Shown in pieces: positions 516 to 55,185 of a stretch of DNA of 64,000 nt. Under the pieces are notes generated by a model. The model was not told the origin of the DNA and did no database searches. It saw only the letters and a program-made list of their open reading frames with translations. Position 1 is the first letter of the stretch. Every line of letters starts with the position of its first letter. The stretch is taken from contig CAWELH010000007.1 in the NCBI GenBank assembly GCA_963809925.1, positions 98,347 to 162,346 of the forward strand, read 5' to 3'. A program made the position numbers and the translations under genes. This DNA comes from an uncultured Bacteroidales bacterium. GTDB lineage: Bacteria > Bacteroidota > Bacteroidia > Bacteroidales > GCA-2748055.

Positions 516-1475
516 ATGCAGAAAGATACATCACGAAAAGTAAAGCTCGGCATATTTGTCACGATCGTGCTCGCAGCATTTTTCTTTGCCATTTATTTTG
601 TCGGCAAAAACATGAACCTGTTCCATGAAGTTACCAAGATATACACGGTATTTCCCGACATTAAAGGTCTTGGAAGAGGAAGCAATGTAAGGTTCTCGGG
701 TATAACCGTTGGCACTGTTTCTGCGATAAGCATCAGCAATGATACAATTGTTCGCGTTGAAATTTCAATCCAGACCGATTATGTGAAGTTCGTGAAGGAA
801 GATTCAAAGGTCGAGATCACGAACGACGGACTCATGGGAAACAAGATCCTCATCATTCATCATGGTTCTTCCGATTCCCCTTCGGTTAAGGAATACCAGA
901 CGTTGCAGTCATCGAAGACCATCAACGTAGAGGACATTGTGAATGAAGCAACGAAGATCATCATAAACGCACGCGATGCCACAAATGTCTTTCTGGAAGT
1001 AAGCAACCAATTAAAATCTGGGAAAGGCGACCTCGGACGACTGATCTACGACACCTCTCTCACACAAAATCTGAAAAGCACTATGAACCACCTTCTGGTC
1101 ACCTCCCGGAATACCGAGGAGCTCACCAACCATATCCGCGAAGGTGAAGGCGATCTGGGAACACTGATATACAGTGATTCACTTACAAACAGCCTCCGTA
1201 CATCATTCCTGGAACTGGAGCAGGCCACCGAAAATATCCAGAAAATATCCCAAAGTCTCGATACCGCAGCATATCATATCAATGCTGGCAGCGGTATCCT
1301 GCACACCCTGATCTACGATTCGACGTTTATCCGGCACGCCGACTCTACCCTTACGAATATGAATCAGGGCATTGATGAGATAACCAGGGCTTTTGAGGCG
1401 ATCAAGGAGAGCTGGATTATTAACTTGTTCGGGGGGAAGGAGAAGAAGAGGAAGAGTGATGGGGAGAGGGAGTGA
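516..1475 (+). CDS. MCE/MlaD family protein
   Basis: N-terminal TM helix (LGIFVTIVLAAFFFAIYFV), then an MCE-type core (FPDIKGLGRGSNVRFSGITVGTVSAISI). The C-terminal half has three internal repeats (GDLGRLIYDTSL, GDLGTLIYSDSL, GILHTLIYDSTF). The last ~8 codons and the stop lie inside a dispersed repeat module. Confidence 0.75.
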   Translation: MQKDTSRKVKLGIFVTIVLAAFFFAIYFVGKNMNLFHEVTKIYTVFPDIKGLGRGSNVRFSGITVGTVSAISISNDTIVRVEISIQTDYVKFVKEDSKVEITNDGLMGNKILIIHHGSSDSPSVKEYQTLQSSKTINVEDIVNEATKIIINARDATNVFLEVSNQLKSGKGDLGRLIYDTSLTQNLKSTMNHLLVTSRNTEELTNHIREGEGDLGTLIYSDSLTNSLRTSFLELEQATENIQKISQSLDTAAYHINAGSGILHTLIYDSTFIRHADSTLTNMNQGIDEITRAFEAIKESWIINLFGGKEKKRKSDGERE

Positions 1476-1735
1476 TGGGGATCCGCCTACGCTGAAGCTA
1501 CGGTGGACGCGGTCCACAAAACCCTCTTCGGCAAGCTCAGAGAACGCCTTCGGCACGGTTAGGGAATGTCTTTGGCAAGCTCAGGTAGCCCCTTTGACAA
1601 GCCTGGGCCCCCCTTCGGCAAGCTCAGGGACCGTGGTTTCTTGCACTTTTGTGAGAAATAGTCGTTTCGGCTCCGCTCAACGACCGCTGGCAGTTTTCAT
1701 TTTAACATGTTTATTTTGGTAGAGTGGTTGGATTG
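1451..1735 (+). repeat. Intergenic repeat mosaic: AGTGATGGGG x2, one inverted 31-nt hairpin unit, CTTCGGCAAGCTCAG-like motifs x4
   Basis: AGTGATGGGG at 1455-1464 and 1471-1480. 1481-1518 (ATCCGCCTACGCTGAAGCTACGGTGGACGCGGTCCAC) matches the reverse complement of the 31-mer arrayed at 48740-48956. CTTCGGCAAGCTCAG-like motifs lie near 1527, 1573, 1597 and 1618. Confidence 0.8.
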
Positions 1736-21074: not shown

Positions 21075-21131
21075 GATTGGCGGATGCGGGGGATCTGATC
21101 GAAAGAAAAAACACTACATAACCTGTTTTTT

Positions 21132-21229
21132 AACATGTTTGGGAGTGGCTGAGAATTGTTCTTTCGGAGCATTAAGGGTGGTGGGTGGGGGGTGGGATCC
21201 CCTGCATAAGAGTATATAAGAACAATATT
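21132..21229 (+). repeat. G4/C-tract hairpin element, copy B (G-rich strand is plus)
   Basis: TTGTTCTT (21156-21163) and AAGAACAA (21218-21225) flank GGGTGGTGGGTGGGGGGTGGG (21176-21196). Confidence 0.85.
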
Positions 21230-21604
21230 TGAAGCCGTAAATCATGGTATATTTTGTTAGATCTTTTGGGTCAATGGATTAATAGTTCCCTTCGAAACAT
21301 ATCTATCTCTCATCATGCCAGTGATATGTCCACATCAACTCTTTATAAATTCCTGATCTTCCAGCTCTTTTCAGGCCTTTGGATCTTAACATTGATTCTG
21401 CAATAAAAAGTGAAATCAATTCCTTATGACTTTGGGATAGTTATCCCCTTAATTCGGGTGACGTTTGCCCGGGTTCCACAAATCCAGACACACAACCCAG
21501 TGTCCCCTCACTCCTGAGTAGATCCAAAGATTCCCACCCCAATTTGTATTTTCCCCCGTTCAGTTTATCTTTATTCCCTCAACAATAAAATTAACTCAGG
21601 AGAA

Positions 21605-23116: not shown

Positions 23117-23833
23117 CTAGTTGCCGTTGCCTGCAAACATTGACTGCTGCGGGTTATAATTTTCAAACGCCTCCAGATAGAGATTCACAAACTCATGCAT
23201 CCTTTTTCTCCGGTACTGGATCACCCAACGGGGATGCGGCAGGGGGATGATCTCGCCGAAGAGTGAGAAACGGGCGTTCAGTCTCTGGAGATAGTCAAAG
23301 TTCTTCCCATTGCCCAGACAGAAACAGTATCGCTTATCAATCTCCCATTCAAGCAGCTCACGGAGGCAGTCGAGAATAAAGGGCTCTGCGATCTCCACCA
23401 GCTCCTTTGAATCGTAATAGTTATAATTCAGTCCGTTCCGGGTAAAGCCGAGCGGGCTGACCGCACTGATGAGGAACTGATCATAGAATTTTTTCACCCC
23501 GCCAAATGCCCCGATCACCTCATAGACAAATCCGGCTGACGCTTCGGTGGTATCCGCAAAAGGATTCTCAATTTCACAGTACGTTCTGAGTTTCACAGGA
23601 TCGGTAAAAGGAATGCCTGTGACACCTGCGCCGAAACGTCCTGGATTGATACCCAGGATCAAACGGCGGGGGCGATTGTCCGAAAAATACTTTTGATAGA
23701 ATTGAATTGTCACATCCCTTACCGTCTCATTCCTGAAAGGATTCATCACCTCCACACCTTCCGGGAGAGAAGCATCAAAATGAAGCTTTTCGTTGAATGC
23801 GATGATCTTATCGGCGAGTGTCGGGGTAAACAT
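23117..23833 (-). CDS. Uracil-DNA glycosylase superfamily protein (SMUG-like/DUF4918-type)
   Basis: ILGINPGRFGAGVTGIPFTDP (GxNPG motif A-like) and IPLPHPRW (motif B-like HP[SR]). Confidence 0.6.
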   Translation of the reverse strand: MFTPTLADKIIAFNEKLHFDASLPEGVEVMNPFRNETVRDVTIQFYQKYFSDNRPRRLILGINPGRFGAGVTGIPFTDPVKLRTYCEIENPFADTTEASAGFVYEVIGAFGGVKKFYDQFLISAVSPLGFTRNGLNYNYYDSKELVEIAEPFILDCLRELLEWEIDKRYCFCLGNGKNFDYLQRLNARFSLFGEIIPLPHPRWVIQYRRKRMHEFVNLYLEAFENYNPQQSMFAGNGN

Positions 23834-24168
23834 TTATTTGATTTGTTGATTTGTTGAATTGTTGATTTGTTGATTTGTTGATTTGTTGAATTTAAGATTG
23901 ATTTATAGAAACTCATCCGATCCATGGGCAAAACCATGGCTATTGTTGGTGAATGCCTCCGGCATGGAAGAAGTGTTCTAAAAATCCTGCTCCATCTTTT
24001 TATTTGTTGAGTTGTTGATCCACCTTCGCTCAAGCTACAGCGGACGCGGTTTGGTGAATTGAAGAGTGATGTAAAGGACATTCCTAACTTCCTAACTTCC
24101 TAACTTCCTAACTTCCTAACTTCCTAACTTCCTAACTTCCTAACTTCCTAACTTCCTAACTCCATCCC
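23834..24168 (-). repeat. Composite octamer-periodic element filling the glnS / UDG-like intergenic gap
   Basis: The module order is colinear with 48410-48739 (see findings). Contains the 47-nt core at 23921-23967 and a 31-nt hairpin unit at 24019-24049. Confidence 0.9.
24081..24160 (-). repeat. Perfect tandem array (TTCCTAAC)x10, i.e. (GTTAGGAA)x10 in glnS sense
   Basis: Counted directly: 80 nt with no mismatch. Ends 8 nt from the glnS stop codon (24169-24171). Confidence 0.97.
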
Positions 24169-25905
24169 TCACTCCCTCCCCGACATCTTCGCCCAAGGAT
24201 CCCGCAATGGTACCGTCCGGTTAAAGACCGGTTTCTCAGGGGAGGAATCGGGATCAACATTAAAATAGCCCAGTCGCTGGAACTGGAACTGGGTAAGAGG
24301 AGCCGCCCCCTTCAATCCCGGCTCAACGTAACAATTGTTCAGAATGCGAAGGGAGTCATCATTCAGAAATTCCTTAAAATCGATACCTCTATGTCCGTCC
24401 GGTTCGGGATCGTTGAACAGCCTGTCGTACAGCCTTACTTCGGCTTTCACGGCATGGCGCGCTGACACCCAGTGAAGGGTGCCTTTGACTTTGCGGTTTG
24501 CCTGGGGTGCGCCGCTTCGTGTTTCAGGATCGTAAGTGCAATGGATCTCAATGATCCGGCCGTTTTCATCCTTCACGGCTTTTTCACAGTAGATGATATA
24601 GGCCGATTTCAGACGAACTTCCTTTCCGGGTGTCAGTCTGAAAAACTTTCCCGGAGGATCTTCCATAAAATCGTCCTGTTCAATATAAATTTCACGGGAG
24701 AAGGGTATGGTTCTGGAGCCCATCGACTCATCCTCCGGGTTATTGATCGTTTCCAATTCCTCCACGAGGTCTTCGGGATAATTGGTGATCACGAGTTTTA
24801 GGGGATCCAGGACCGCCATCACTCTGGCAGCCTTTATATTTAGATCTTCACGGACTGAATGTTCCAGAAGTCCGACATCGATGATGCCGTCAACCTTGGT
24901 TACGCCGATGCGCTCAGCAAAATTCCGGATGGATACCGGTGTGTACCCCCTGCGGCGAAGACCTGAGATAGTGGGCATCCGGGGATCATCCCAGCCCCTG
25001 ACGAGACAATTCTTTACCAGTTCCAGCATCTTTCTCTTGCTCATGATGGTATAGCTGAGATTCAGCCGAGCAAACTCAATCTGTCTGGGCCGGACATTTC
25101 CTAAATTTCGAGGCATATTTACATCCCATCCATAGTTGGTAACCTGATCAAGAAACCAGTCGTAGAGCGGCCTGTGAACTTCAAATTCCAGTGTACATAT
25201 GGAATGGGTTATTCCCTCAAAATAATCAGACTGCCCGTGCGCATAATCGTACATTGGATAAATACACCAGGCATCACCGGTTCGATGATGAGATTTTCGC
25301 ATGATCCTGTACATAAGTGGATCCCGCATGTGCATATTTGGCGAGGACATATCGATTTTTGCCCTAAGGACATGAGTTCCTTCAGCAAATTCTCCCTTTT
25401 TCATCCTCTCAAAAAGATCCAGGTTCTCCTCAACACTACGATCCCGGTAAGGACTTACGCTGCCAGGTGTGGTGGGTGTACCTTTCTGTTCGGCAATGGC
25501 TTCTGCACTCTGATCATCAACATATGCCTTCCCGTCCCTGATAAGTTTTTTCGCCCACTCATAGAGCTGATAAAAATAATCAGACGCAAAGTACTCCCTG
25601 TCGTCCCATCCGAAGCCCAGCCACTTGATGTCTTCCCTGATGGAATCGACATACTCAATCTCCTCTTTTGTCGGGTTTGTATCATCGAACCTCAGGTTTG
25701 TCAGTCCGCCAAACTTTTCAGCTATACCAAAATCTATACATATAGCCTTGGCATGGCCGATATGCAGATAACCGTTTGGCTCGGGTGGGAAACGGGTATG
25801 AACCCTATCTCCGTTCTTTCCCGATTTGAGGTCTTCATCAACGATCACCTCAATAAAATTCAGACTTTTCTTCTCAGTTTTTGGCTCTTCCGGATGCATA
25901 TTCAT
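24169..25905 (-). CDS. glnS: Glutamine--tRNA ligase
   Basis: [37 protein letters not shown] closely parallels E. coli GlnRS. TIMSKRK (KMSKS-class). 578 aa. Confidence 0.95.
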
Positions 25906-41320: not shown

Positions 41321-41418
41321 TATATTGTTCTTATATACTTATTTGTAGGGGATCCCACCCCCCTCCCGCCACCCTTAATGCTCCGAAAGAACAAATCTCA
41401 GCGTCCCCTGCCCATGTT
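41321..41418 (-). repeat. G4/C-tract hairpin element, copy C (G-rich strand is minus)
   Basis: TTGTTCTT (41325-41332) and AAGAACAA (41387-41394) flank CCCACCCCCCTCCCGCCACCC (41354-41374). Confidence 0.85.
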
Positions 41419-41694
41419 CTTCAACACCACCTCAACCATTATTCGCAATAAAATCCTTTATCCACCTTTAACATCCTGTGTTCCAAATAAACCATCTCCT
41501 TTTACCCTGAGACGAAGATCCCCGGTATTGCGAAATTGAGTTTTCAACTTCCTTGTCTGTTTCAATATGTCATTTTCCCCATAGATTACTTACCTTTACA
41601 TTGAATTGACACCTGGCTGGACAGCCTTAAATTGTCTGGGCTACATACAACACGGACCTTCATTATTTAACCTATTTTCAACAACCATTAACCC

Positions 41695-47088: not shown

Positions 47089-48420
47089 ATGAAACAGGTA
47101 AAACTCATACTCCTGATTGTGGCCGTTGTACAGATAAGCGTTCAGGCCCAGATAAATAAAAGGATAACTGCTGAAGCTTCAAAGGAAAGTGAAGCAGCAT
47201 TGAAGCTTTGTAAACAGATTCATGAAAATCCCGAGCTTTCAACTATGGAATTTGAAACCGCGGAGCTGATGGCCTCTGTGTTTGAAAAAGAAGGGATGGA
47301 AGTGACGCGTCATTTTGGTGGTAACAGTGTGGTAGGAATTTATAAAAACGGAAACGGGCCGGTGATCATGTTGCGTTGCGATCTGGATGCATTACCTGTT
47401 CAGGAGAAAACCGGGCTGGATTTTGCCAGCACAAAACAGATGAAAAATACCAATGGGGAGGAAGTGTATGTTATGCATGCCTGTGGACACGATATCCACA
47501 TGTCGGTGTTGGCCGGTACAATCCACACCCTGATCGCGTTGAAAGATACATGGAAAGGAACGCTGATGGTCATTGCCCAGCAGGCTGAAGAGATTTCCGG
47601 CGGTGCCACCACAGCCATCAAGGCAGGTCTGTTTCAGAAATTTCCCGTACCTGATTATGCACTGGCCTACCATATAAATCCCGATGTCGAGTCGGGCAAG
47701 ATCGGACTGGTTAGCGGACCGGCTCTTGCAGGTGTTAAGACCGTATATATTACCGTGCACGGTAAAGGCGGACACGGAGCCCTCCCGGAGAAATGCATCG
47801 ATCCCATCGTTATCGCTTCGCGAATCGTTTTAGACCTTCAGACCATTGTCAGCAGGGAGGTCAGCCCTCAGGAACCCGCAGTTGTAACTGTCGGATCCAT
47901 CCATGGAGGTACCCGGCCAAACATCATCCCCGATGAGGTAAAGCTGGAACTTACCCTGCGCTATTACAGCGATGAGGTCATAGATCAGATTATAAGCGCA
48001 ATAAACAGAATCTGCCGTGGCGCAGCACTTACTGCCGGCTTGCCGGAAAACCTGATGCCGGAAGTGATCGTATCTCCCGAAAATACACCTCCGGTAATTA
48101 ACAATGCCAGACTTAAAAGTGATATTGAATCCTTCTCCGGTGGCATCCTTGGCGCTCAGAATGTGGTTCCGGTAAAACCCGTGATGGGTGCCGAAGACTT
48201 CGGCCTCTATGGCAAAACACCAGAAAATATTCCCATTTTTCTGATCTGGTTAGGGATCACGAAACCCGAGCTGATGGCCGAGTATAAAAGCAAAGGCCAG
48301 TCACCTCCTCCGCTGCACTCACCCAACCTGACGCCGGACTATCAGAAGGCCATTGAGACCGGGATCGAGGCGATGACGGCGAATGTGATTGGGATGATGA
48401 AGGGCGGGGGGAAGTTATGA
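47089..48420 (+). CDS. M20D-family amidohydrolase (aminoacylase/hippurate-hydrolase-like)
   Basis: Signal peptide. LRCDLDALP, MHACGHDIHM, GGHGA. The ATG at 47089 is preferred over the TTG at 47083. The final codons (GGG AAG TTA TGA) are in register with the downstream octamer repeat. Confidence 0.85.
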   Translation: MKQVKLILLIVAVVQISVQAQINKRITAEASKESEAALKLCKQIHENPELSTMEFETAELMASVFEKEGMEVTRHFGGNSVVGIYKNGNGPVIMLRCDLDALPVQEKTGLDFASTKQMKNTNGEEVYVMHACGHDIHMSVLAGTIHTLIALKDTWKGTLMVIAQQAEEISGGATTAIKAGLFQKFPVPDYALAYHINPDVESGKIGLVSGPALAGVKTVYITVHGKGGHGALPEKCIDPIVIASRIVLDLQTIVSREVSPQEPAVVTVGSIHGGTRPNIIPDEVKLELTLRYYSDEVIDQIISAINRICRGAALTAGLPENLMPEVIVSPENTPPVINNARLKSDIESFSGGILGAQNVVPVKPVMGAEDFGLYGKTPENIPIFLIWLGITKPELMAEYKSKGQSPPPLHSPNLTPDYQKAIETGIEAMTANVIGMMKGGGKL

Positions 48421-48739
48421 TGTTATGGAGTTAGGAAGTTAGGGAGTTAGGGAGTTAGGGATGTCCCTTATCACTCTTCAACTCAACAAACCGCGTCCGC
48501 CGTAGCTTGAGCGAAGGTGGATCAACAACTCAACAACTCAACAAATAAGAAGTGATGGGGAGAGCATGAGAGGTGCTTGTAGAAACGATTCATCCATGCC
48601 GGAGGCATTTTCCAACAATAGCCATGGTTTTGCCCATGGAGAGGATACGGTTTTAGAGCTCTCTCTTGAATTCAACAAACCGCGTCCGCCGAAGCTTGCG
48701 CCACCGCTAAAGGCGGCACGCGGTCAGCGAAGGTGGGCT
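48410..48739 (+). repeat. Composite octamer-periodic element (colinear with 23834-24180)
   Basis: GGAAGTTA-type octamers x6 at 48410-48457. Linker GGGATGTCCCTTATCACTCTTCAACTCA. 31-nt hairpin unit at 48491-48521. (CAACAACT) repeats. AGTGATGGGG at 48551. 47-nt core at 48594-48640. A diverged 31-mer with an insertion at 48681-48739. Confidence 0.9.
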
Positions 48740-48956
48740 GTGTCCGCCGAAGCTTCAGCGAAAGTGGACCGTGTCCGCCGTAGCTTCAGCGAAGGTGGGC
48801 TGTGTCCGCCGTAACTTCAGCGAAGGTGGGCTGTGTCCGCCGTAACTTCAGCGAAGGTGGGCTGTGTCCGCCGTAGCTTCAGCGAAAGTGGACCGTGTCC
48901 GCCGTAGCTTCAGCGAAAGTGGACCGTGTCCGCCGTAGCTTCAGCGAAGGCGGATC
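48740..48956 (+). repeat. Seven head-to-tail copies of a 31-nt hairpin-forming unit (GTGTCCGCCGTAGCTTCAGCGAAGGTGGGCT)
   Basis: Units counted at 48740, 48771, 48802, 48833, 48864, 48895 and 48926, with no spacers. Two 3' variants (GAAGGTGGGCT / GAAAGTGGACC). Confidence 0.95.
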
Positions 48957-49043
48957 AATAAATAGTCTCTGTGCTGAATGGTTGACAATTTCATGAATCG
49001 AATTACATAGCAGCATTGGCCGGTGCATACCGAATACTAAAAA

Positions 49044-54448: not shown

Positions 54449-54507
54449 AATGCTTTGTATCTACACTATAAAAATAGCGAATTTTTATAGAAAAATGCCC
54501 TTCTTTT

Positions 54508-54690
54508 GATTTGGTGATTTGGTGATTTAGTGAATTGAAGAGTGATTTAAAGGACATCCCTAAATCCCTAACTTCATAACTCCCTAATCATAACTCCATC
54601 ACTCCATCACTTCTTATTTGTTGAGTTGTTGAGTTGTTGAGTTGAAGATTGATTTAAAGAACATCCCTAACTTCCTAACTTCATAACTTC
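54508..54690 (-). repeat. Two tandem minimal units of the octamer-periodic element
   Basis: In minus-strand sense: GAAGTTAT GAAGTTAG GAAGTTAG GGATGTTCTTTAAATCAATCTTCAACTCA (ACAACTCA)n ACAAATAAGAAGTGATGGAGTGATGGAG TTATGA.. GGGATGTCCTTTAAATCACTCTTCAATTCA (CTAAATCA CCAAATCA CCAAATCA). Confidence 0.9.
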
Positions 54691-55185
54691 CTATCTCCCC
54701 AGCAATTCATCCAGATTCTCCAGACCTGCTGTAAATCCTTCCCTGAATCCCATCTCAATGATCTTCTCCAGGTCGGTGAGTCTATCAAACGTCAATACTA
54801 CGTTTACAATAGTAGATCCGGAATCCTCACGGAATGAATTGGACCAGTTAATTGTCGGCATATTCGGATCTATATTTCCGTTTTCATCGCAAAAGGCATC
54901 CCTGGATGAAAACGCTTTCATCGGGTTAATGGTGATGTAATCAACCCGCGACCAGTGCTCTGACCTGTCAGGTCCGACCATGGCATAAAGCCACATTCCT
55001 CCTTCCGAGAAATCCATGGATTTGGTTCTGCCTTTCCATGGTTTCGGAGCCCACCATTGATCAAGAATATTGCTCTGTGTCCATGCAGCCCAAACTTTGG
55101 CAAGGGGTGCTTCAAACTCCCTTTTCACCGTAATGGCTTTCTTTTCCTTATCGACGGAAAATTCCATGATTAAATTACGTTTCAT
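54691..55185 (-). CDS. SRPBCC-superfamily protein (AHSA1/START-like)
   Basis: 164 aa. [20 protein letters not shown] opening typical of AHSA1-like SRPBCC proteins. Overlaps the upstream ArsR gene by 11 nt. Confidence 0.8.

Follow-up and report, generated by a model that had tools for sequence, protein, structure and literature searches.

The gap between glnS and a UDG-superfamily gene in an uncultured Bacteroidales bacterium is filled by a repeat element containing ten flawless copies of a single octamer, and this raises the question of what kind of element it is, how it came to lie there and whether it acts on its neighbours. The DNA analysed, referred to here as the window, is a 64,000-nt stretch of one metagenome-assembled contig. 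We regard the element as probably a lineage-specific mosaic of short-period tandem repeats carrying small nested hairpin repeats. Judged by their sequence characters, its tandem repeats are members of a class known in cyanobacteria as STRR and elsewhere as 'long simple sequence repeats' with 5-11-nt units. Both arrays of the glnS gap are made of head-to-tail units of this length class without spacers, and arrays are dispersed between genes beside unrelated neighbours (four loci in the 64-kb window). Their strand asymmetry goes with an oriented placement, at 4/4 window loci and in other genomes, and copy number varies among close relatives, as seen for the arrays of two related Bacteroidales genomes.

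The element proper covers 23834-24168, and the whole 335-nt glnS/UDG gap is taken up by modules (Table 1). The native coding end of glnS, with the codons GGG AGG GAG and the stop TGA (24169-24171), lies outside the repeats. A preliminary description had counted 'GGGAGGGAG-TGA' as a module of the element, but alignment to relatives, whose proteins end in ..GKE* where this one ends in ..SGRE*, identifies it as the native glnS C-terminus. At the other border, the UDG start ATG (23831-23833) is backed by an N-terminal match with relatives (M..TLADKII). The modules listed in the preliminary description were each found at their coordinates when the minus strand was read. The C-free array (R-array) of GTTAGGAA units, which can equally be written as GUUAGGAA with n=10, is indeed perfect, as assembled, at 24081-24160 (TRF at 24081-24161: period 8, 10.1 copies, 100% matches, score 162), and it carries TAG in 3/3 frames and, on the complementary strand, TAA in 3/3 frames. 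The asymmetry is mirrored in the second type of array (Y-array): GTTAGGAA has no C and TCAACAAA has no G. The longer Y-array, written as (UCAACAAA)7, contains neither G nor AUG (TRF at 23838-23889: period 8, 6.5 copies, 95% matches), and its CAACAAAT-type octamers extend up to the UDG ATG at 23833.

Several of the intervening modules can be placed by comparison with other copies. The linker is the hub common to all basic units, and sister loci, like the glnS gap, open with degenerate units. The 31-nt unit is nested 3' of CAACAAA/CACCAAA in three places; TCAACAACTCAACAAATA was found at 24001-24018 on the minus-strand reading, and the variable spacer (23968-24000) stands where sister loci have a GTGATGG leader. 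The core shares homology with a portion of a tandem satellite of ~112 nt found in related genomes and is, among the fetched loci, the only module that recurs in relatives. This arrangement suggests a building block of ~100 nt, in which a C-free, purine-rich (GTTAGGRA)n array would be followed by a ~30-nt linker and a G-free (TCAACAAN/TCACCAAA)n array. The glnS gap would then represent two such units in tandem, with the 31-nt unit inserted into the first Y-array and a hairpin-pair module, putatively from the 112-nt satellite, replacing the expected second R-array.

Table 1. Genes, modules of the glnS/UDG gap and related loci in the window
Feature	Position	Strand	Evidence
Locus D, partial relative	1430..1633	+	TRF, pattern matches
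UDG-superfamily gene	23117..23833	-	Pfam UDG, E = 2.6e-13
Y-array, about 7 TCAACAAA-type octamers	23834..23890	-	TRF; ends at UDG start codon
Second, degenerate linker (..TTCTATAAATCAATCTTAAAT)	23891..23920	-	Linker match with 2 mismatches at 23882-23902
Core: mini-hairpins ATGCC-GGA-GGCAT and CCATGG-TTTTGC-CCATGG	23921..23967	-	Sequence, relatives, compensatory changes
Variable spacer AAAAGATGGAGCAGGATTTTTAGAACACTTCTT	23968..24000	-	Alignment of basic units
Short Y-array TCAACAAC TCAACAAA TA, G-free	24001..24018	-	Sequence and alignment
31-nt unit CCGCGTCCGCTGTAGCTTGAGCGAAGGTGGA	24019..24049	-	Pattern matches in window, TRF, folding
Linker TGTCCTTTACATCACTCTTCAATTCACCAAA, starting with conserved ATG	24050..24080	-	Window matches and alignment of basic units
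R-array (GTTAGGAA)x10	24081..24160	-	Perfect, C-free; TRF 100% matches
Degenerate first unit GGGATGGA	24161..24168	-	Sequence; directly 3' of glnS stop codon
glnS (glutaminyl-tRNA synthetase)	24169..25905	-	Pfam tRNA-synt_1c, E = 8e-99; C-terminus aligned to relatives
Sister locus B, module order as in glnS gap	48410..48960	+	Alignment, three colinear blocks
Sister locus C, basic unit (R-array, linker, Y-array) twice in tandem	54498..54703	-	Alignment

The modules recur in the window well beyond expectation, with 6 matches to the linker (0.03 expected), 10 to the 31-nt unit (0 expected), 19 to the GTTAGGRA dimer (0.10 expected) and 14 to the TCAACAAN dimer (1.06 expected). The module order was said to return from 48410 onward, and it does: over 48410-48760, locus B matches the glnS element in three colinear blocks of 82-91% identity, with a tandem array of eight 31-nt units (48724-48950; TRF 7.3 copies) in place of the second Y-array. 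A shortened version reported near 54508-54700 corresponds to two tandem short units at 54498-54703 (locus C). The stretch 1451-1520, also taken for a shortened copy, holds fragments only, lacks the linker and has the 31-nt unit inverted. It forms part of locus D, where a purine-rich GTGATGGG leader surrounds the stop codon of an MlaD-like gene; this locus also holds the inverted 31-nt unit, tandem units of 22 nt and, at 1558-1573, an isolated GTTAGGGA-ATGTCTTT remnant. The sister arrays are built of GTTATGAA, GTTAGGGA or GTGATGGA units.

The four loci within 64 kb neighbour glnS and genes for an M20 peptidase, an AHSA1-like protein and an MlaD-like protein, whose functions are unrelated. At each of the four, the genes on both sides point the same way, and the R side is the one at the stop codon. 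At locus B the upstream M20 peptidase gene ends inside the array (stop codon 48418-48420), and at locus C the upstream AHSA1-like gene ends inside the first unit (stop codon 54691-54693); at both loci the Y-array or 31-nt array stops 50-90 nt short of the next start codon. In all, three genes in the window terminate inside repeats.

Comparison with related genomes found the element absent from the orthologous glnS-UDG gap. Relatives with about 80% glnS identity keep the synteny of the two genes, with repeat-free gaps of 72-123 nt that are unrelated in sequence and too diverged to align. Because these relatives retain glnS-UDG with short gaps free of repeats, the sequence comparison marks the mosaic as a gain specific to this lineage. 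A metagenome scan with a 21-nt linker pattern gave 43 matches, with 0 in an octamer-repeat context like that of the window; as it yielded no further copies, the composite is not traceable beyond its own lineage. Linker, junction, 31-nt unit and 22-nt unit were likewise missing from the fetched loci, bar one chance-level match to the 22-nt unit with 3 mismatches. An exact-protein look-up with the glnS product of the window returned no record and no same-species contigs, and a literature search by octamer strings returned primer and sequence noise only.

The octamer arrays themselves are far more widespread than the composite. At least 98 stretches, drawn from more than ten phyla, contain GTTAGGRA arrays, the loci having been selected by this one octamer and including some orthologous pairs. 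These loci comprise 266 period-8 and 162 period-7 TRF rows, and when 371 non-overlapping arrays from these related loci are pooled, the G-rich strand contains 4% C. Orthologous arrays of two related Bacteroidales genomes differ by whole-unit indels between identical flanks. In this pair, indel events amount to 11.7 per kb in arrays and 2.0 per kb outside, an about sixfold difference, and gapped columns make up 27% of arrays against 3.5% outside. This excess fits slippage. The length variation by slippage predicted in the preliminary description is therefore upheld for these orthologous arrays, whereas for the glnS array the support is indirect.

Orientation follows a rule across phyla: the C-free array comes first, beside the flanking gene and usually just past its stop codon, and the G-free array comes second. 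At the GTTAGGRA loci the R-then-Y order occurs in 33 cases versus 5 (p = 4e-6). With crude ORF calls restricted to long ORFs, the ORF that an array adjoins is the one lying 5' of its G-rich strand in 45 cases versus 16 (p = 3e-4), the median distance between array and ORF is 31 nt on that side versus 191 nt, and the 5'-side adjacency stands at 35 versus 14 for ORFs of at least 250 aa. The same calls place 87 arrays that are G-rich in the gene's sense near gene 3' ends, against 24 that are C-rich, and near gene 5' ends 14 that are G-rich against 34 that are C-rich. A hairpin between the arrays was considered as a general cause of this polarity and rejected, with near-complementary units in 13/33 pairs only and folding no better than in a reversed-arm control.

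Predicted RNA structure is sparse. The R-array is essentially unstructured (MFE -4.8 kcal/mol over 91 nt, z = +1.5), the Y-array has no predicted structure (MFE 0 kcal/mol) and the whole element folds at z = +1.8 against shuffles. The 31-nt unit reaches -12.4 kcal/mol (z = -1.2 against shuffled sequence; z = -2.2 for the inverted copy at 1476-1522), and the two mini-hairpins, at z -0.5 and -1.0, are no more stable than shuffled sequence. A structured-RNA reading was rejected, as neither whole-element nor per-module folds exceeded the stability of shuffles. Hairpins had been proposed on the basis of the window alone; they gain nothing in stability over shuffled sequence, but the pairing of the mini-hairpins is borne out in relatives by four compensatory pair changes, with 98% of cells paired. 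Rfam 15 at the gathering threshold gave a single tRNA elsewhere in the window, and at E up to 5 there was no match inside the element and two chance-level matches outside it.

Signals for termination, coding and initiation were also sought in the gap. No intrinsic terminator, defined as a GC-rich stem-loop with a U-run, is present on the minus (sense) strand at 23834-24168, in agreement with the earlier statement that this is not a classical terminator; the contiguous, spacer-less units likewise agree with its exclusion of CRISPR. From the linker ATG, the four copies read 111, 14, 16 and 60 codons, and one of them is thrown out of frame by a 2-nt indel. The ATG was rejected as a coding start since its frame is not conserved, and the observation that no consistent ORF is kept between copies was correct. 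A sigma-70 promoter scan gave 1 match versus 0.9 expected under a model that is not informative for Bacteroidales promoters, and inspection by eye found no clean TAnnTTTG motif on the sense strand. Position -3 of the UDG gene is U, not A.

How does the element compare with known repeat systems? For prokaryotic genomes, Mrazek and co-workers reportedly described long simple sequence repeats with 5-11-nt units as a descriptive statistical class. The arrays resemble what is said of that class in unit length, intergenic location and occurrence in free-living, repeat-rich genomes, and in having no link to phase-variable surface genes; unlike the glnS-gap element, however, the class specifies no composite architecture or polarity. 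BIME/REP elements of enterobacteria and BOX elements of pneumococci are modular extragenic mosaics with a palindromic unit that follow genes and are co-transcribed with them. The glnS-gap element is similarly composed of a few short modules in variable number after genes. It differs from BIMEs in its 31-nt units, which are direct tandem copies at 31-nt spacing rather than inverted pairs and do not show a clearly stable REP-type palindrome (z = -1.2, and -2.2 for the inverted copy); no RAYT occurs among 14 Pfam-scanned proteins, and BIMEs contain nothing comparable to the octamer arrays. In Nostoc punctiforme, Elhai and colleagues reportedly described in 2008 small dispersed repeats (SDR) lying within heptamer arrays. 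These are said to be 20-30-nt units inside short-period arrays, comparable to the 31-nt and 22-nt units here, although the sequences are unrelated and the 31-nt unit is a putative insertion. The term SDR is cited in PMC3116915.

The GGGNATC heptamers of Rehm et al. 2015 follow the same placement rule as the GTTAGGRA arrays, and form G-quadruplexes in vitro; the GGGAATC and GGGGA(C/T)T heptamers of Xanthomonas and Nostoc overlap cyanobacterial STRR sequences (PMC4692102). Shared with the present arrays are the short period, the lack of spacers, the dispersed intergenic location, a G-rich strand, length variation between close relatives and neighbours of unrelated function. Here, in contrast, the host belongs to the Bacteroidales, the unit is 8 nt rather than 7, the arrays are part of a fixed composite that also includes a linker and, as second array, a non-complementary G-free one, and the glnS array has GG rather than GGG runs, which makes G-quadruplex formation doubtful. 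MacGregor (2015) reported direct repeats of the heptamer TAACTGA in Beggiatoaceae, Cyanobacteria and five Bacteroidetes; these arrays immediately precede start codons, and the genomes concerned have few SD sequences (PMC4679880). Gaps with TAACTGA also hold other short-period repeats, and the closest relatives of Gramella and Aequorivita keep the neighbourhood with shorter gaps that lack TAACTGA (PMC4679880). Occurrence of one unit in distant phyla and repeat-free, shorter gaps in relatives are common to both cases, whereas TAACTGA differs in unit and period and lies mostly upstream of genes, GTTAGGRA arrays lying mostly just after stop codons. BrickBuilt of Porphyromonas gingivalis is a MITE with a 23-nt minisatellite located 49-591 nt from genes (PMC4596501). 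Like the present element it is a composite located between genes of a Bacteroidales host, with spacer-less tandem repeats framed by leader and tail segments and with several copies per genome, but it has inverted-repeat ends, which are missing here, its unit lengths differ, and the element in the glnS gap adjoins stop and start codons. The arrays fall into an already-described class of oriented short-period intergenic repeats (PMC4692102, PMC4679880) that was overlooked in the preliminary description.

BrickBuilt, as a modular MITE with a tandem minisatellite known in Bacteroidales (PMC4596501), also lends weight to a different origin, in which a non-autonomous mobile element of MITE or BIME/BOX-like type transposed as a unit behind the glnS, M20 peptidase and AHSA1-like genes. 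Two ~330-nt copies lie 24 kb apart with the same module order and 82-91% identity, the orthologous gap of relatives lacks the element, and the placing of the 31-nt unit after CAACAAA/CACCAAA in three places resembles nested site-specific insertion. Such an origin is possible but rather unlikely, given that there are no terminal inverted repeats (a search of 23780-24230 gave 0 inverted pairs of 10 nt or more) and no recognisable target-site duplication at the ends, that these ends are not sharp, with arrays grading into gene ends, that Pfam identified no transposase or RAYT among 14 scanned proteins (those flanking the four loci, plus a few neighbours), and that the metagenome scan gave no further linker copies. 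It is decidedly unlikely that the element is a dedicated RNA-level cis-regulatory element, whose 8-nt-periodic arrays would be read by a single-strand RNA binder (S1, cold-shock protein, Rho or other) and would set termination, read-through or translation of the downstream gene. We know of no protein that binds such arrays, the functions of the flanking genes are unrelated, unit sequence and copy number drift rapidly, the same gene pair is present in relatives without the element, and the window loci disagree in where the array lies with respect to the next start codon. These points are set against the strong polarity across phyla, the single-stranded state of both arrays in folding, the contact of the Y-array with the UDG start codon, comparable proposals for TAACTGA repeats (PMC4679880) and the altered reporter output seen when Nostoc heptamers upstream of recF and recO were deleted (bioRxiv 10.1101/2022.06.06.494920).

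A G-quadruplex-forming repeat, with G4 DNA or RNA taking effect beyond the stop codon, has a very slim chance of being the right explanation. Its placement is that of the G4 heptamers of Rehm et al. (PMC4692102), and the sister units GTTAGGGA have GGG tracts with 5-nt loops. Yet the glnS array offers only GG runs, the number of GGG tracts never reaches four (three at locus B; one in the first and three in the second unit of locus C), the complement of the Y-arrays (TTTGTTGA) has no G-runs, and run lengths in the GTTAGGRA family peak at 3, which is the search minimum, and not at 4. The idea put forward in the preliminary description, that (UAGGAAGU)10 RNA serves as a Shine-Dalgarno-like ribosome decoy or a GGA protein sponge of the CsrB/RsmZ type, drew on AGGAAG being one mismatch from AGGAGG and on ten evenly spaced GGA motifs; it now appears extremely unlikely. 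CsrA is, to our knowledge, generally absent from Bacteroidota. The R-array is unstructured, so its GGA motifs are outside hairpin loops, unlike those of the CsrB type, and AGGAAG is not conserved, because sister arrays use GTTATGAA, GTGATGGA or GTTAGGGA units. A decoy is further opposed by the behaviour of Bacteroidia ribosomes, in which the anti-SD is sequestered and SD sequences are ignored (PMC7797042, PMC13000453); the host is placed in the Bacteroidales by its glnS relatives. It is hardly credible either that the perfect array was produced by the assembly, through collapse or expansion of a repeat: the source is a metagenome-assembled contig, but typical reads are longer than the 80-nt array, the conserved genes on both sides are correctly joined to it and have intact ends, and comparable arrays with as many as 20 units are present in many independent assemblies from different assemblers.

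For the reading that we favour, a lineage-specific mosaic of tandem repeats, the following course of events can be proposed. Arrays would lengthen and shorten by replication slippage, and the flawless 10-unit run would mark a recent expansion. Whole composites may reach new gaps by recombination or some copy mechanism, while the orientation of the arrays would be filtered by the tolerance of the flanking genes at the RNA level. The most likely effect of the element is that it would be transcribed as a passive, structure-free intercistronic spacer. Within such a spacer, the R-array would block read-through translation in all frames without placing C-rich RNA 3' of the stop codon, and the Y-array would provide the UDG gene with a G-free, AUG-free, unstructured leader that may be compatible with SD-independent initiation in Bacteroidia, where translation is tuned by low structure and AUG avoidance near the start codon (PMC6847099). 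The leader idea is weak, given U at -3 of the UDG gene and arrays at loci B and C that end 50-90 nt before the start. As a G-free, C-containing sequence, the array would also make a good Rho loading site and could oppose read-through into UDG. In our view, a dedicated regulatory function is less likely than tolerated, selfishly expanding DNA.

The C-free-then-G-free polarity, seen on either strand and in more than ten phyla, with octamers as well as heptamers and with no need for complementary arms, has a slim chance of marking a general, unrecognised class of cis-elements that demarcate transcription units. If this were true, the arrays might be read by a conserved single-strand-binding machine; Rho, for example, would be excluded from the C-free trailer and load on the G-free array in competition with the ribosome. 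A more radical version would invoke templated, telomerase-like repeat addition at broken ends that are later rejoined, which would account both for the constant 5'-to-3' course of the G-rich strand, leading away from the gene and into the middle of the gap, and for the presence of the same TTAGGG-containing unit in distant phyla.

The element extends the little-studied oriented short-period intergenic repeats, represented by heptamers in cyanobacteria, Xanthomonas, Beggiatoaceae and a few Bacteroidetes; in the present case they take an octamer form, in an uncultured Bacteroidales lineage and, as an incidental result, in many other phyla. In practical terms this matters only modestly: the arrays are hypervariable markers, they can break assemblies, and they create spurious ORFs and altered C-termini.

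The repeat mosaic between glnS and the UDG-superfamily gene is a real feature and was described accurately. Read on the minus strand (glnS sense), 335 nt separate the glnS stop codon TGA (24169-24171) from the UDG-superfamily ATG (23831-23833), and both genes were confirmed with Pfam. The modules and coordinates of the preliminary description are correct, since TRF, Pfam and module recurrence above shuffle expectation agree with the sequence reading. In the window, the linker has 6 matches against 0.03 expected by shuffling, the 31-nt unit 10 (0 expected), the GTTAGGRA dimer 19 (0.10 expected) and the TCAACAAN dimer 14 (1.06 expected). The leading GGGAGGGAG-TGA, which had been counted as a module, is instead the native end of glnS; in relatives the glnS C-terminus is ..GKE*, and GGGAAGGAGTGA or GGGAAAGAATAG stands where GGGAGGGAG is found here.

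Modules of the glnS/UDG gap in order from the glnS stop codon, and loci of the ~112-nt satellite in related Bacteroidales contigs (each with its own coordinates)
Feature	Position	Strand	Basis
GGGATGGA	first module after glnS stop	minus	sequence reading
(GTTAGGAA)x10, zero mismatches	24081-24160	minus	TRF 10.1 copies, 100% identity, score 162
linker, ~30 nt	24050-24080	minus	sequence reading
31-nt unit	24019-24049	minus	sequence reading
TCAACAACTCAACAAATA	directly 3' of 31-nt unit	minus	sequence reading
spacer, 33 nt	between TCAACAACTCAACAAATA and core	minus	sequence reading
core, 47 nt, two mini-hairpins	23921-23967	minus	sequence reading
second linker, degenerate	3' of core	minus	sequence reading
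~7 TCAACAAA-type octamers	last module, up to UDG ATG	minus	TRF 6.5 copies, 95%
~112-nt satellite	L003:15-713; L047:2482-3546; L063:2950-3121; L072:3006-3065		

Alignment of three good copies gives a building block in which an R-array of C-free, G-rich octamers, (GTTAGGRA)n, is followed by the linker TGTYCTTTAAATCAMTCTTCAAYTCA and a Y-array of G-free octamers, (TCAACAAN or TCACCAAA)n. Two blocks in tandem make up locus C (54498-54703, minus strand). The glnS locus and locus B (48410-48960, plus strand) likewise hold two blocks, with the 31-nt unit inserted 3' of CAACAAA/CACCAAA and the hairpin-pair core in place of the second R-array; locus B also has eight tandem 31-nt units in place of the last Y-array. 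This unit (GTCCGCCGTAGCTTCAGCGAAGGTGG..) forms a direct tandem array (7.3 copies, 93% identity, 48724-48950) that makes a spurious 82-aa ORF (48566-48814). At locus D (1430-1633, plus strand), 1451-1520 had been taken as a shortened version, which holds for its purine-rich GTGATGGG leader and one GTTAGGGA-ATGTCTTT remnant (1558-1573), but the linker is missing and the 31-nt unit is inverted. Its 22-nt tandem units (CCCTTCGGCAAGCTCAGGG-type, ~5 repeats, 68% identity, 1520-1630) are interrupted by that single junction remnant. In loci B and C, unit types grade 5' to 3' from GTGATGGR through GTTATGRA to GTTAGGGA beside the linker, and the identical gradient in two other Bacteroidales genomes (L045:2850-3150 and L079:3650-3950) suggests composite arrays of common ancestry or growing from one end.

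The closest glnS proteins in a large protein collection share 81% identity and belong to uncultured Bacteroidales. Three contigs of these relatives keep the glnS-UDG pair, with gaps of 72-123 nt that are mutually unrelated in sequence. Because these short gaps carry no repeats, the mosaic is a gain in the window's lineage. In one relative, L001 (80% glnS identity), the gap is repeat-free; two genes downstream of it, (GTTTGAAATG)n precedes (TCACCAAA)n (L001:7120-7490), matching locus C in Y unit and in G-rich-then-C-rich order. A metagenome-wide scan did not find the linker in octamer-repeat context (43 of 43 matches without it).

A scan for three GTTAGGRA units, with one genome per species, returned at least 98 stretches, GTTAGGRA being the sole octamer scanned, so that over-representation relative to others is not implied. 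The matches listed, with many loci apiece from several genomes, include Bacteroidota (several Bacteroidales, Chitinophagaceae, Fluviicola, Prevotella), Acidobacteriota, Cyanobacteriota, Chloroflexota, Fimbriimonas, Planctomycetaceae, Gemmatimonadales, Verrucomicrobiota, Peregrinibacteria and Gammaproteobacteria. Among these listed matches, TRF gives 266 period-8 and 162 period-7 rows, the G-rich strand is 4% C (pooled over 371 non-overlapping arrays), the flanks hold the kindred units GTTGGGGA, GATAGGGA, ATTAAGGG, ATTGAGGG and GTGAGGAG, and a second, C-rich array very often lies a few nt downstream. One run of 20 GTTAGGRA units (L069:4116-4433, Bacteroidales MFD02416.bin.1.410) alternates GTTAGGGA with GTTAGGAA, for an effective 16-nt period, and has more arrays beside it. 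The octamer arrays are no phage feature. Their sole IMG/VR viral-contig match is a 3-unit run on a 54-kb contig (L005:2747-2770).

Across four pairs of orthologous loci, two of the scanned Bacteroidales genomes share 94-98% identity. At one orthologous locus, ~55 nt upstream and ~120 nt downstream of the array are identical, and the array itself differs by several substituted units and one indel of 8 nt. Over a 28 kb alignment of the two genomes, short-period arrays have 11.7 indel events per kb versus 2.0 elsewhere, and 27% gapped columns versus 3.5%, an excess that fits replication slippage. The length variation predicted for the perfect array is thereby supported in these two genomes, not at the glnS locus. 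Only 3 of 107 runs among the matches listed reach 10 units, placing the glnS run in the upper tail; it is probably a recent expansion, since its sister arrays in the window are heterogeneous.

Heptamer arrays of GGGAATC and GGGGA(C/T)T in Xanthomonas and Nostoc are intergenic, differ in length among close relatives and adjoin genes from all functional classes (Rehm et al., PMC4692102). MacGregor (PMC4679880) found TAACTGA arrays in members of the Beggiatoaceae, in cyanobacteria and in five Bacteroidetes; for Gramella and Aequorivita, the gene neighbourhood is conserved in the nearest relatives, whose gaps are shorter and repeat-free, much as in the relatives at glnS. Because these heptamer arrays share its features, the octamer mosaic belongs to a class already known and is not a new kind, and at glnS/UDG it is unremarkable for a repeat-rich genome of this type. 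Function was established by neither study (PMC4692102; PMC4679880), and Nostoc heptamers near recF and recO reportedly had modest reporter effects (preprint, bioRxiv 10.1101/2022.06.06.494920).

The one intriguing point is the compositional polarity, which here reaches octamers and many phyla; for GGGNATC heptamers, such placement relative to gene ends is already published (PMC4692102). Where G-rich and C-rich arrays are neighbours among the matches listed, the G-rich array comes first in 33 cases and the C-rich in 5, on either strand (p = 4e-6). Hairpin formation was rejected as the cause of this order, with near-complementary units in only 13 of the 33 pairs and a reversed-second-arm control predicted to fold at least as well. 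When each locus contributes a single array and ORFs shorter than 150 aa are ignored, the GTTAGGRA array has its nearer ORF on the 5' side of the G-rich strand at 45 listed loci versus 16 (p = 3e-4; 35 versus 14 when the ORF minimum is 250 aa), at a median distance of 31 nt versus 191 nt on the other side; in 31 of the 45, this ORF is co-oriented and the array follows its stop codon. Read in the gene's sense, listed arrays within 40 nt of gene 3' ends are G-rich in 87 cases and C-rich in 24, and those at 5' ends G-rich in 14 and C-rich in 34. The gene calls behind these counts are crude; the trend is stable. In the window, the genes on either side of each of the four loci point in the same direction, and the purine-rich side lies at the stop codon, which is within the repeats in three. 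These stop codons belong to the M20 peptidase (48418-48420), AHSA1-like (54691-54693) and MlaD-like (1473-1475) genes, whose last residues are therefore repeat-encoded; of the four upstream genes, glnS alone retains a native end.

Predicted RNA folding of the complete element is weaker than that of its shuffles (z = +1.8), with an MFE of -4.8 kcal/mol over 91 nt for the R-array and 0 kcal/mol for the last Y-array. The sense strand of the gap has no intrinsic terminator, and the element has no Rfam match. All three frames of GTTAGGAA contain TAG and all three of its complement TAA; TCAACAAA has neither a stop codon nor AUG. Bacteroidia leave SD sequences unused, with the anti-SD sequestered (PMC7797042; PMC13000453), and their initiation is helped by low structure, upstream adenines and no extra AUGs (PMC6847099). 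Given the frame stops, the SD-independent initiation and the lack of RNA structure or terminator, the element is probably a tolerated, slippage-driven spacer whose orientation the flanking genes would filter, leaving glnS with a stop-rich trailer free of C, and UDG with a leader that lacks G, AUG and structure. Against a tuned role, the UDG start has U at -3, the arrays of loci B and C stop 50-90 nt short of the next start codon, and relatives do without the element. The earlier judgement that it is no terminator, no CRISPR and no consistent ORF was sound. Where the R-array meets the linker, a conserved ATG (approximately 24078-24080, 48461-48463, 54557-54559 and 54664-54666) would begin peptides MSF(K/T)SLFNS.. 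in three of four copies; a 2-nt deletion breaks this frame in locus B, lengths range from 14 to 111 codons, and it is probably not coding.

Other readings fare less well. A MITE or BIME-like mobile element would account for the copy at 48 kb, but inverted ends are absent and no transposase is nearby, and we consider it unlikely. A dedicated protein-binding RNA element seems less likely, and the suggested SD-like, GGA-containing decoy is unlikely because SD is unused in Bacteroidia, hairpin loops do not display the motif and AGGAAG is not kept in sister arrays. G4 formation by the glnS array is doubtful, its units being GG-only. Finally, the perfect array could be an assembly artefact, which is unlikely because its flanks are intact and many independent assemblies hold similar arrays.

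The two hairpins of the core match part of a ~112-nt head-to-tail tandem satellite in related Bacteroidales contigs (7 copies in L003, 10 in L047), which has no Rfam counterpart. Four of their base pairs are altered on both sides (compensatory) and 98% of cells are paired; because essentially one lineage split is involved, the evidence that these hairpins matter is modest. A separate dispersed intergenic repeat of ~110 nt (80-86% identity; 1740-1851 plus, 21123-21234 minus, 41322-41426 plus), with no Rfam match for its three window copies, contains a conserved ATATTGTTCTTATATAC box and, after it, GGGGATCCCACCCCCCACCCACCACCC. Between locus C and the GH43 gene start lies a perfect 10-bp palindrome, CTATAAAAAT-N5-ATTTTTATAG (54466-54490), a possible operator or part of a promoter region.
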